Shown in pieces: positions 61,263-64,000 of a DNA stretch of 64,000 nt; the stretch's first letter is position 1, and each line of letters starts with the position of its first letter. The DNA is from Escherichia coli (lineage in GTDB: Bacteria > Pseudomonadota > Gammaproteobacteria > Enterobacterales > Enterobacteriaceae). The notes under the pieces were generated by a model. The model saw only the letters and a program-made list of their open reading frames with translations. It was not told where the DNA came from and did not search any database. The position numbers and the translations under genes are program-made. The stretch lies in assembly GCF_003334765.1 (NCBI RefSeq), contig NZ_QOWT01000007.1, one strand, 5' to 3'.

Positions 61263-61824
61263 GGGGGAGGGGGGAGATTATGGAACTTTGCTCCTTGTAA
61301 GGACTAATTATTTTTGCATATTACTTCATTAGCTGCGATGATTTTTCTTTAATATTCATTATGTTAATAAGTTCTGGATGAGTGTGCTCTCATTGGATTT
61401 TTTATCCGTCTTGTTCTGCCGCAGGATGAGACTATACATCGTCGAGATCGCAATGATGATATGAGTTGTTCCTCCTGCGACGGCTCTAATCAAAAAAGAG
61501 CAGGAGTGCTTTTCCATCTATTGCGATGATGGCTTTATTATCTGAAGGATGACAGTCACATTTAAAAAATATTTAATCTATAGATCACAATGTAGGGTCA
61601 TGGAATATATGTATACAACTATTTTCTTCTTCACTTTTAATTATCGTATTCATTATAAAACTAAGTTAAAAAAACTCCTGGAGAGTGAGTTATTAATATA
61701 TTTTTAAATAAAATTAAGTTATCATTCATCGATGCACTTTATAGAATCATCAATGGCCATAATAGTACTATTAACTCTCAATTTTATATTTTTATCATCA
61801 CTACAAATATTAACTGAATTTATA

Positions 61825-62160
61825 TCAATGATTTTTTTTATTCTTATCTTTTATTTTATTTACTGTTTCAATGCAATCAGCGGCAAGTTGGAGTGGATTT
61901 AGATTTTTCAGATATGGTCTTATGATCTTTCCCTTACTTAATAAATAGCATGTATAGGATTCGGAAAGTCCAGCATCTATTTTGTACCTCCTTATATTAG
62001 ATAAGGATGTGAGAAATTCCTTGTTATCATTCGCAGCCATATATGCCAGTCCGAGTTCAGCCTCTGCGGCCTTACAGGCAAAATAGCTTAGTGAACACGC
62101 TTTTCGTCCCTCTTTAGTACTGGCTGATATTAGTGCCCATAATATTGCTTTGTCTGCCAA
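61825..62160 (-). CDS. hypothetical 111-aa protein downstream of a decayed Rhs C-terminal fragment (candidate orphan immunity protein; possibly yibV)
   Basis: 111-aa ORF MADKAILWALISASTKEGRKACSLSYFACKAAEAELGLAYMAANDNKEF... in AT-rich DNA; position relative to the Rhs remnant. Confidence 0.4.
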   Translation of the reverse strand: MADKAILWALISASTKEGRKACSLSYFACKAAEAELGLAYMAANDNKEFLTSLSNIRRYKIDAGLSESYTCYLLSKGKIIRPYLKNLNPLQLAADCIETVNKIKDKNKKNH

Positions 62161-62248
62161 ATCTAACTCTCTCTGAAATTGTCTTGCAGTAACTGCACTC
62201 GCAGAAATAGAGAAAAAAATACAATTGTTAATAACCTTGCCATATTTT

Positions 62249-62866
62249 TTAGTCCGTAACTGTTAATGTGCTATCTGGCTCTGAAAATATTAACTCATTT
62301 AATTTTTGCATGTCATTAGATAAACCAGTTATACAACCCTCGGAACAGAATCGAGGTCCTAAAGACGGACCAAAAGCGTTTAAACAACTATGTATTGAAA
62401 ATCCATTGCGATTATAAGTTCCTGTATTAACTGACGGTACTAATCGTATGCCGTCAGGTTTTCTATTGCTTGCTCCCGGGTCATTAACATTCCAACTCCA
62501 TAGGCCTTGAGGTATTGGCTATCTATTTATAAATGTGTACAACGGGGATTATTTTTACATTGCATATTATTACCAGAAGCGACTGGAATACTAAGCACAT
62601 CATAAAAATTATCATCACATGGTATATCTGAAACACACGAAAGCATACCTAAAGTTATGCTGTATAAACAGGTGGCTAATCCCAAGGGGATCGATTCCAG
62701 AAATCGGGTTCAACGGATACTGATAAAAATTCCACCTACCTTCCAGCCCAATCGGAGCCTGAGTGTTATACCGCCCCTGCTGCGGTTAATGTTACCGATA
62801 ATAGTTATAGTACAGCCCTGATTCATCATCATACTACTGCTGCGGCAGTCTGATGAACTATTGCTT
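62249..62866 (-). pseudogene. decayed orphan Rhs C-terminal fragment (core-end remnant + disrupted CT domain)
   Basis: 62706-62860 is a diverged copy of the Rhs core-end DNA at 63857-64000. Minus-strand translation gives [53 protein letters not shown]... with in-frame stops and a downstream frameshift; no ORF of 60 aa or more. Confidence 0.65.
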
Positions 62867-63328
62867 TTACGGATTCTCCTTATTCTTCCTTCTATCCATT
62901 CGCTTTAGCTTTTTGAGCTCTTGAAGTTTGCTCTTTGCATCAATATTACCGTTATTTACAGCGAATTCCATCCAATAAATAGCTCTATTCAAATTATAAT
63001 ATTCTGATAATGTTGGATTTGTATCTGATAAAAAGACCCCATAATTAAACTGCGCTGTAACATTCCCCTGAGATGCTGATCTTTCCAAGAATCGCAATTG
63101 TTTGTAAATGTTATTTTTAGTAAAGCAGTAATATTGATATAGTCGAAATGATGCCTCTGAATCACCATGTTGTGATTTATACTTCAGTTTCATCAACTTT
63201 TCTTCACTTAAATCATAGGTCATTGCTGTAGACCCCATCATACTTTCGTTTTGTTTTATTTTCACATCAGCACCATGCAATTGACAAATAAAAGAGAAAT
63301 AAAAAAATAGTAACAAGCATGCTTTCAT
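62867..63328 (-). CDS. yibG: Sel1-like repeat protein with N-terminal signal/TM segment; candidate immunity protein for the upstream Rhs C-terminal domain
   Basis: 153-aa ORF MKACLLLFFYFSFICQLHGADVKIKQNE...SASQGNVTAQFNYGVFLSD (Sel1-like motif); start 12 bp after the Rhs-CT stop. Confidence 0.6.
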   Translation of the reverse strand: MKACLLLFFYFSFICQLHGADVKIKQNESMMGSTAMTYDLSEEKLMKLKYKSQHGDSEASFRLYQYYCFTKNNIYKQLRFLERSASQGNVTAQFNYGVFLSDTNPTLSEYYNLNRAIYWMEFAVNNGNIDAKSKLQELKKLKRMDRRKNKENP

Positions 63329-63339
63329 ACATCTACAAC

Positions 63340-64000
63340 CTATCTTATATCACTGGGTTTTTCTGGCGTACCTTGCATATTAGAAATGGGGTGCCCAGAT
63401 GGCCCATATGTTATCCAATTACCAAGGTCTTTTGTTGTTATAGCCATTAGATCCTTATTTGAATTAAGGTTCGTTGGTGCTGTTAGCACTGTATCCATTT
63501 TTAACTTACCATTAGTTCCTCGCCCCCACCACGTCCATAGCGTGTCAGGTCCTATTACATTTGTATGTAACTCTTTAGCTAATTGGCTAGCAAATGAATT
63601 TTGTCCTTTACCTGTATTACAAGAAAATAACCAAACTGTCATCCCATCTTTATAATTCCCATCAAATTTAATTAGATATGCTAGATCTTTAGCTGTCATG
63701 ATACTGCGCGTTGCGGATTCAATAGATGTGGGGGTACCATGCCCCCCGATTGTGAAAACGCCTGGGATATTAATCTCATCAGCTACAGAATGGATAAGAT
63801 CACTTTCGGGGTATAAATTTATATCAACCAAACCTTGCGGATCTACATTTATGACCGGATTCAACGGATACTGATAAAAATTCCATCCCCCCTTCAGCCC
63901 AATCGGATCCTGAGTGATATACCGCCCCTGCAGCGGGTCATAATAGCGGTGGCGGTTGTAATACAGGCCGGACTCCTCATCATACTGCTGCCCCGGCAGG
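63340..64000 (-). CDS. Rhs-family protein, 3' portion (core-end motifs + variable C-terminal domain of unknown function); 5' end lies beyond the window
   Basis: Minus-strand frame is open to the window edge and reads ...[57 protein letters not shown] (PxxxxDPxGL demarcation at 63829-63858), then a 162-aa C-terminal domain ending at 63340. The ORF-track start at 63864 is a TTG artefact. Confidence 0.75.

Follow-up and report, generated by a model that had tools for sequence, protein, structure and literature searches.

The rhsA locus of Escherichia coli K-12 encodes an Rhs protein whose C-terminal domain is toxic and is neutralised by the product of the next open reading frame (ORF), as the work of Vlazny and Hill (1995) is cited in PMC3150448. 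In Salmonella, experiments have shown that orphan Rhs toxins become active through recombination between core-end repeats (PMC3967940). Here we analyse an Rhs C-terminal domain (CT) of 162 residues and the 153-residue product of yibG, the gene that follows it, which lie on the minus strand between positions 62867 and 64000 of a 64,000-nucleotide stretch of E. coli DNA (contig NZ_QOWT01000007.1), referred to below as the window. [quoted passage not shown]

In K-12, the counterpart of the CT is the pseudogene yibJ, an orphan fragment situated behind rhsA and the HEAT-repeat immunity gene yibA, with yibG next. The pair studied here and K-12 RhsA-CT/YibA have in common the locus, the Rhs core, the combination of a variable CT with an antidote in the next ORF, and displaced downstream orphans that can be promoted by recombination (PMC3967940); the main K-12 CT and YibA are, however, unrelated in sequence to the yibJ-type CT and YibG. 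We interpret the element in the window as the tip, presumably toxic, of the polymorphic-toxin locus rhsA together with its immunity gene.

Among described toxin classes, the CT fits the Tox-Caspase class of Zhang et al. (2012; PMC3482391), a match made to their description rather than to their alignment. In that survey, Tox-Caspase domains are defined by a conserved H and C; internal copies, sometimes arrayed in actinobacterial toxins, are regarded as releasing peptidases, C-terminal copies, including those on Rhs proteins, as likely toxins, and Imm36 and Imm57 are given as partners. The caspase-like α/β fold and the H and C are shared, and both placements, C-terminal and internal or arrayed, are found in the CT family. 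The difference lies in the partner, Sel1-like here and Imm36 or Imm57 in the survey; in both cases the activity is predicted.

The only studied close structural relatives of the CT are Tce1 (PA0256) and Tce2 (PA2372) of Pseudomonas aeruginosa, DUF4347-type T6SS effectors that are putative cysteine proteases (PMC13323088; PDB 9qpe), the second of which is toxic to yeast in a Cys-dependent manner (PMC13323088). These are free-standing cargo carried inside Hcp3 rings, whereas the CT is an Rhs tip with a partner gene; Tce1 and the CT are 13% identical, and a profile of our CT alignment A1 fails to find Tce1 by sequence. The cysteine protease domains (CPDs) of family C80, found in V. cholerae MARTX/RtxA and C. 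difficile TcdA/TcdB, are self-processing modules inside host-directed toxins and are activated by inositol hexakisphosphate (InsP6). The CT differs from them in its length (162 residues against 205–251 in the matched chains), in its terminal rather than internal position, in having a partner gene and in lacking a conserved basic pocket.

The CT–YibG pair is already annotated and in the literature, and is not a new kind of system. An in silico study of the enterohaemorrhagic E. coli (EHEC) strain EDL933, published in 2020 (PMC7216683), described a pair named RhsA (EDL933_4854) and RhsAI (z5018), and because its primer rhsA2R maps to positions 63725–63743 of the window, within the codons of the CT GGHG motif, we equate that pair with ours. 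Its authors modelled the RhsA CT onto PDB 3HO6 and described the downstream protein as a putative immunity protein with TPR/Sel1 repeats. To them, 3HO6 suggested inhibition of small GTPases; that structure is, however, the protease domain of TcdA, and our analysis points to a protease fold. In their 132-residue annotation, YibG begins at Val22 and the signal peptide is missing; catalytic residues, family and co-occurrence are treated only in the present work. Sel1-like repeat (SLR) proteins have precedents as T6SS immunity proteins in PA5086–PA5088, which act against the phospholipase PldB, and in Klebsiella Sel1E, which acts against VgrG4 (PMC7216683, PMC7108748). Like YibG, these are small SLR solenoids, and they are directed against T6SS effectors, as YibG is predicted to be; the toxins they neutralise are not peptidases, one being a phospholipase D and the other the C-terminal domain of a VgrG.

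Predicted fold and catalytic dyad of the CT

The initial annotation of the window recognised no domain in the residues that follow the Rhs core. At the level of sequence this holds, since the CT has no match in Pfam even at E ≤ 10 and none in NCBIfam or in a phmmer search of the PDB; at the level of structure it does not, as a predicted clan-CD fold and an invariant His–Cys pair can be discerned. Among individual models, neither the Pfam hidden Markov model for DUF4347 (PF14252) nor that for C80 (PF11713) matches the CT of the window, the latter matching 2 of 56 relatives at E ≤ 0.1.

When 1.84 billion cluster representatives were searched exhaustively with phmmer, 562 relatives of the CT were retrieved at E ≤ 1e-3. 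His30 and Cys70 are invariant in the 56 sequences of alignment A1 and are present in 154 of 157 sequences, within the family motifs FT[VI]GGHG and LxSCxTGxG..SFAQQLA, respectively. The corresponding segments of the CT in the window are VFTIGGH30G and VWLFSC70. The codon for the predicted catalytic histidine occupies positions 63739–63741 and that for the predicted nucleophile, in the motif LFSCNTG, positions 63619–63621, both on the minus strand and both verified in the DNA. The order of the putative dyad, His before Cys, in the form of HG and SC following hydrophobic strands, fits clan CD as far as it can be read from the sequence.

Structure prediction for the residues beyond DPQGL, proposed as a check in the initial annotation, gave a confident AlphaFold2 model. 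With A1 as input, the predicted local distance difference test (pLDDT) score is 93.3 and the predicted template modelling (pTM) score is 0.89. In this model, His30 follows β-strand 24–28 and Cys70 follows β-strand 64–68, both strands being hydrophobic. Its strong structural matches are to Tce1/DUF4347, the C80 CPDs of RtxA and TcdA, gingipain, legumain, CHAT and caspases, all of them protein or peptide endopeptidases of clan CD, and a DUF4347 protein ranks at the top. Clan-CD transamidases and ligases (GPI8, asparaginyl ligases) are also among the matches, and nitrilase-superfamily amidases appear at low rank. Foldseek searches of the PDB gave weak results, with none at E ≤ 0.001; the top match was an RTX CPD (E = 0.027, probability 0.91) and asparaginyl endopeptidases were also retrieved. 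In AFDB50, the database's own models of the CT agree with ours (template modelling scores of 0.97–0.99), YibJ of K-12 (P32109) is recovered, and relatives at 33–37% identity are labelled DUF4347 or Peptidase C80.

Scanned singly against Pfam, 4 of the 56 relatives match DUF4347 at E ≤ 1e-3 and 11 do so at E ≤ 0.1, with weak matches to Peptidase_C13, C80, C25 and CHAT as well. The matches of the A1 profile to the PDB are all sub-threshold; in that to an asparaginyl endopeptidase (legumain), which at E = 0.31 is not significant, His30 and Cys70 fall on the catalytic HG and ACESG motifs. The modelling makes it very probable that the CT has the fold of clan CD, shared by caspases, legumain, gingipain, clostripain, CPDs and CHAT proteins, and it is probable, with less assurance, that the CT is a cysteine peptidase by activity.

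Several other assignments were considered and set aside. An α/β-hydrolase with a Cys nucleophile is disfavoured by the absence of such structural matches and by a Phe at the −2 position of the 'elbow', and a papain or NlpC/P60 fold by the complete lack of structural matches and by the His-then-Cys order of the CT. The matches to nitrilase-type amidases are of low rank only, and the Glu and Lys of the nitrilase triad are not conserved. An InsP6-dependent CPD was rejected because the CT family lacks a conserved basic pocket: by a crude measure that takes account of sequence conservation only, two alignment positions are at least 50% Lys/Arg.

Of 150 single-copy relatives, 147 have the domain no more than 80 residues from their C-terminus. 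Fifteen giant proteins of 1.2–6.8 thousand residues hold between two and five internal copies, which in some (P0025, P0028, P0029, P0031, P0033 and others) are spaced about 450 residues apart. L016 and L017, the two giant-protein loci examined, encode ADP-ribosyltransferase or PI3/PI4-kinase-like domains as well; the genes downstream belong in both cases to another family of small proteins, one without signal peptides. A word-indexed protein search returned relatives of the CT and of YibG from enterobacteria only. A scan of genome contigs with a second alignment, A2, gave 42 pattern matches, a number below or equal to our own rough estimate of chance, and none was confirmed by tblastn; the K-12 representative is itself broken by a stop codon inside the pattern.

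E. coli also has another Rhs tip with this fold, only 33–35% identical to the CT (AFDB A0A376S9M4 and A0A9P2VKJ6, from E. coli and E. coli O157). It may be the tip of the EHEC 'PAAR' protein z0268, for which PMC7216683 used the RtxA CPD as model.

YibG and its pairing with the CT

The initial annotation had described the 153-residue protein as Sel1-like, and the family profile makes this clear. Taken as a single sequence, YibG matches Pfam weakly (Sel1, E = 1.2; TPR_27, E = 8e-4), whereas a 15-member profile, A4, matches SEL-1 structures in the PDB, including 8sxq, 4bwr, 6ok3, LpnE, SEL1L, MotX and HcpB, with E values from 5.6e-43 to 9e-6. Judged by this profile, YibG is a true SLR protein, and it contains about two SLR units together with a conserved N-terminal segment, ST...[YF].L. 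The matches also include 5jkp and 5jjo, each entitled 'uncharacterized protein', which we take to be structures of PA5087 and PA5088. Positions 62867–63328 are likewise annotated as yibG, a sel1 repeat family protein.

The association with the CT is conserved. In all eight divergent Rhs loci inspected, where the CT identity is 36–54%, a YibG-like gene lies directly downstream of the CT homologue. These loci are from Salmonella (L003 and L007/8) and metagenomes (L005, L009, L010 and L015), with two further examples in L006, where VgrG and PAAR lie upstream, and L012/13; three of the eight had to be read manually on account of an uncalled ORF (L009), a mis-called start (L010) and a poly-A frameshift (L007). 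The encoded proteins share the motif GD..A[SA][FY]RL..YY and later Sel1 motifs. At the two actinobacterial loci examined in which the CT domain is internal, no YibG-like neighbour is present and the adjacent genes are unrelated. In the Salmonella case of L007 (3740–4205; GCA_013727115.1 / CP007639.1), a frameshift in a run of nine A residues separates the signal peptide of the YibG homologue from its mature part, and the gene caller gives a 121-residue product only.

Homologues of the CT at 44–54% identity, from Salmonella and metagenomes, retain the two-gene layout, and the DNA encoding the CT is present in 3497 of 5426 complete E. coli genomes; CT and yibG are for these reasons not a chance pair of ORFs. 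The genuine Rhs core end, the terminal position of the CT in its relatives and the recurrence of the YibG-like gene bear out the organisation first proposed from the window, an Rhs tip followed by its cognate partner.

Co-folding of the two proteins had also been suggested. We used AlphaFold2 on a fusion of the CT, a (GGGGS)5 linker and mature YibG, with seven paired alignment rows and unpaired homologues. The linked model has a pLDDT of 87.6 and a pTM of 0.82, the latter to be read with the covalent linker and the shallow alignment in mind, and all five models have pLDDT values of 85–88. Two halves without confident relative placement would be expected to give a pTM near 0.5. From about residue 202 of the fusion the chain is entirely helical. 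YibG residues ~29–33 (SMMGS) gain a β-strand in the fused model, and the CT strand 97–101 extends to 97–105, which hints at β-augmentation near the CT cleft in the modelled complex. On the combined evidence, we regard it as highly likely that the CT and YibG form a toxin/immunity pair.

Predicted export of YibG and the probable site of action

The N-terminus of YibG reads MKACLLLFFYFSFICQLHG in the translation of 62867–63328. The first 19 residues comprise an n-region with Lys2, an uncharged stretch of 18 residues and a Gly at position −1 (LHG|ADVK), and by heuristic reading of the sequence we predict a Sec signal peptide (63272–63328, minus strand) with a probable cleavage site before ADVK. 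The secreted or periplasmic look of the protein, remarked upon when it was first annotated, extends to its family: a signal-peptide-like N-terminus or lipobox can be recognised in 14 of 15 members, conserved in position and character and not in sequence, and the homologue in L015 has a canonical lipobox, LAGC. For T6SS effectors that act in the periplasm, exported immunity proteins are the rule; since the immunity protein appears to be exported here too, the periplasm is favoured as the place where the CT and YibG meet. That the CT acts there we consider somewhat the better supported view.

The exception is the partner in L012 (8111–8455) and L013 (6873–7223), encoded beside an Rhs gene associated with VgrG, DUF2169 and Tox-PAAR-like proteins, which belongs to the YibG family and has no signal peptide. 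Going by the sequence, the toxin of this lineage may act in the cytoplasm.

Downstream of yibG lies a second, decayed orphan toxin/immunity module (61722–62860, minus strand). It contains the remnant of an Rhs core end with in-frame stops (approximately 62615–62860), a broken CT with weak matches, over its last 85 codons, to the Pfam families Tlde1_dom (E = 0.006) and YkuD (E = 0.05), and Imm57 (K-12 yibV), which is frameshifted just past its signal peptide, MARLLTIVFFSLFL, and whose C-terminal part is the ORF 61825–62160. We considered and rejected Imm57 as the immunity protein of the yibJ-type CT, as it belongs to this neighbouring Tlde1/YkuD-like orphan. The orphan probably accounts for the link that Zhang et al. 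drew between Imm57 and Tox-Caspase in γ-proteobacteria. Because it is Tlde1/YkuD-like and is accompanied by an Imm57 with a signal peptide, it indicates that envelope-directed tips were present earlier at the rhsA locus, which lends support to a periplasmic site of action.

The rhsA locus in the window and in other genomes

The neighbouring genes mtlA, yibI and yibH, together with megablast comparison with complete E. coli genomes, place the element at the rhsA locus. The 3' end of the Rhs core, comprising its last 57 codons, occupies positions 63829–64000 on the minus strand and reaches the edge of the window. Its translation (63829–63999) contains, directly ahead of the CT, the self-cleavage motif PxxxxDPxGL, as the initial annotation had stated. 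The CT follows at 63343–63828 (minus strand), ending in EKPSDIR exactly 162 codons after the core end, and is closed by a TAG stop codon (63340–63342, minus strand). Between this stop and yibG (62867–63328, minus strand), the predicted cognate immunity gene known in the EHEC literature as RhsAI, is a spacer, GTTGTAGATGT, of 11 nucleotides (63329–63339, minus strand), where a gap of 12 bp had been given; the lengths and positions reported earlier for the CT and the 153-residue protein agree with the translation. The G + C content of the CT is 32–43%, compared with 51–55% in the flanks. The entire orphan and tip region, 61550–63650, is rich in A + T (22–43% G + C, against 51–55% in yibH and mtlA), which is typical of horizontally shuffled Rhs tips.

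The CT of the window is intact, since its codon 82 is CAA (63583–63585) where K-12 yibJ has TAA (L002, 7913–7915). In K-12, this premature stop is 12 residues past the predicted catalytic Cys. Sequence comparison suggests that it is specific to the K-12-derived lineage; the rows at 99.8% identity in our listing of the spread are mostly K-12-derived laboratory strains.

A second difference from K-12 concerns the gene to which the CT belongs. In genomes that are 100% identical to the last 20 kb of the window (e.g. strains H3 and BS74R-D), yibA is absent, and yibG is preceded by the gene for a 1409-residue 'RHS element core protein' (WP_016248285.1) that has the CT as its final 162 residues. This protein matches the NCBIfam model RHS_core with 2644 bits over residues 1–1247 (cut-off 2000) and TIGR03696 (Rhs_assc_core) over residues 1170–1247, the core ending with DPQGL at residue 1247. 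The core end in the window is identical in sequence to residues ~1191–1247 of WP_016248285.1, and as the TIGR03696 match ends at the same residue, the upstream frame is indeed Rhs core.

Comparison of the 170-nucleotide core end (63831–64000) with K-12 L002 5753–5914 and 7506–7675 reveals that, at all three sites that differ from the K-12 orphan yibJ, the window has the nucleotide of the main K-12 rhsA core. As read from the sequence, this pattern of single-nucleotide polymorphisms (SNPs) is the footprint of a putative recombination event in which the orphan CT was joined to the main core and the K-12-type tip was lost together with yibA. Since the 20-kb-identical genomes carry the full-length gene and the core-end SNPs match main rhsA, we infer strongly that the rhs gene of the window's strain is full-length, which answers, by evidence from beyond the window, the question raised at the outset of whether the frame was a full rhs gene or an orphan fragment.

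The spread of the module was assessed with a 491-nucleotide CT sequence. Its 3497 occurrences include 3488 at ≥99% identity, and the K-12-type junction of yibA and orphan is found in 2948 complete E. coli genomes. The CT is borne as an orphan in ~88% of E. coli carriers; about one carrier in eight, O157:H7 among them, has it on a working, full-length Rhs gene. Some recent RefSeq records name the orphan fragment 'DUF8616 domain-containing protein' (e.g. L018 2501–3259, NZ_CM149595.1), and the CT may thus already carry a DUF number. In NZ_CM149595.1, an IS3 element lies between yibA and the orphan fragment.

Proposed mechanism and alternatives

It is established that the shell of Rhs proteins houses their CT and that the aspartyl autoprotease of the core cuts after the core-end motif. 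Applied to this locus, the core autoprotease would cleave after DPQGL with the CT enclosed in the shell, and a T6SS spike would deliver the Rhs protein into a neighbouring cell, where the freed CT, as a His–Cys endopeptidase, would attack one or several targets in the envelope or the periplasm. Carriers of yibG would export YibG to the periplasm, and its Sel1 solenoid and N-terminal strand (~29–33, SMMGS) would bind the CT and block the cleft. In K-12-like strains, the module would be a displaced orphan whose CT is not deliverable, the K-12 copy being truncated by a stop codon in addition, and yibG would be kept as stand-alone immunity; in the lineage of the window, recombination between core-end repeats would have turned the orphan into the functional tip of rhsA. 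A more specific version is doubtful and is offered as speculation: the CT might be the first interbacterial toxin of clan-CD fold to attack the envelope from the periplasm, cleaving a specific protein or peptide link, with the YibG strand (SMMGS...Y.L) occupying the cleft as a pseudo-substrate.

The evidence on a T6SS link is divided. In its favour, the full-length E. coli Rhs protein begins MSGKPAARQGD, and among homologous Rhs loci, L006 lies beside VgrG and PAAR, and L012 beside VgrG, DUF2169 and Tox-PAAR-like proteins. Against it, the E. coli protein, when compared with Pfam, matches DUF6531 and RHS repeats only, PAAR not being matched; no vgrG is adjacent to rhsA, and the T6SS genes of the strain were not searched for. 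Further observations weigh against the model. The window covers only the last 57 core codons, and the full length of the gene was deduced, not read. The pTM of 0.82 was obtained with a covalent linker and a shallow multiple sequence alignment (seven paired rows), without an unrelated pair as control. With the signal-less partner of L012/L013, a periplasmic site is not universal in the family. A literature search on yibJ and yibG found no functional study, and the relatives Tce1 and Tce2 have no immunity gene, proved non-toxic to E. coli when tested and are regarded as effectors against eukaryotes (PMC13323088).

This last point also speaks for the possibility that the CT acts in the bacterial cytoplasm or in eukaryotic cells, and that the signal peptide of YibG has some other meaning or YibG is not an immunity protein at all. 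The C80 CPDs act inside host cells, as is well established, the YibG-family protein of L012/L013 has no signal peptide, and Zhang et al. give Imm36 and Imm57, not Sel1 proteins, as partners of Tox-Caspase. We nevertheless think this unlikely. A YibG-like neighbour occurs at 8 of 8 Rhs loci with 0–3 other genes between or after, the typical placement of an immunity gene; the CT family lacks the conserved polybasic InsP6 pocket (two positions with ≥50% Lys/Arg); the pTM of the linked model favours a complex; and the neighbouring Tlde1-like orphan offers a better explanation of the Imm57 link. Distinctly unlikely, in our estimate, is a closer variant with the same fold and pairing, in which the His–Cys site would be that of an amidase or transpeptidase working on peptidoglycan stem peptides or the Lpp–peptidoglycan link, with YibG blocking it in the periplasm, in the manner of the Tae/Tlde effectors. 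The export of the immunity protein in 14 of 15 family members would suit such an enzyme, as would the presence in clan CD, and among the structural matches, of transamidases and ligases, the low-ranking matches to nitrilase-superfamily amidases, and the peptidoglycan-directed class to which the adjoining decayed Tlde1/YkuD-like orphan belongs. We know, however, of no clan-CD enzyme that acts on peptidoglycan; the Glu–Lys–Cys triad of nitrilases is absent, His30 and Cys70 being the only invariant residues; and the strong structural matches are without exception to endopeptidases of proteins or peptides.

Finally, the module might be an evolutionary relic, a silent or undeliverable Rhs element kept by linkage and without function in this strain. 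E. coli Rhs genes are poorly expressed in the laboratory, the CT is mostly an orphan behind rhsA–yibA (2948 genomes with the junction, set against about 3350 with the CT), the K-12 copy has a premature stop, and the next module downstream is fully decayed. Against this, the CT and yibG are intact in the window and at least 99% identical in 3488 genomes, in its closest relatives the CT is part of a full-length gene, and the core-end SNPs indicate promotion by recombination, the process that activates orphan Rhs toxins in Salmonella (PMC3967940). We consider a relic very unlikely, and retain the model of a periplasmic peptidase toxin restrained by exported YibG.

Implications

The concept of an Rhs tip of the Tox-Caspase class with an immunity gene is established, and the advance made here is incremental. 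It consists in the assignment of the fold and of the catalytic dyad, the systematic pairing of the CT and YibG families and the conserved export signal, and it corrects the published reading of EDL933 RhsA as an inhibitor of small GTPases (PMC7216683). The analysis predicts, largely from models, a clan-CD peptidase toxin that depends on His30 and Cys70, an exported Sel1 antidote, and toxin action that probably takes place in the periplasm. Roughly two in three complete E. coli genomes contain the module; among them are K-12, which has yibG as an uncharacterised y-gene and yibJ as a pseudogene, and O157:H7. If the model is correct, a caspase-fold protease would join the short list of T6SS toxins directed at the envelope. 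It would also explain why yibG is retained intact where the toxin cannot be delivered: yibG of K-12 would be an orphan immunity gene against a toxin wielded by a minority of E. coli, O157:H7 among them.

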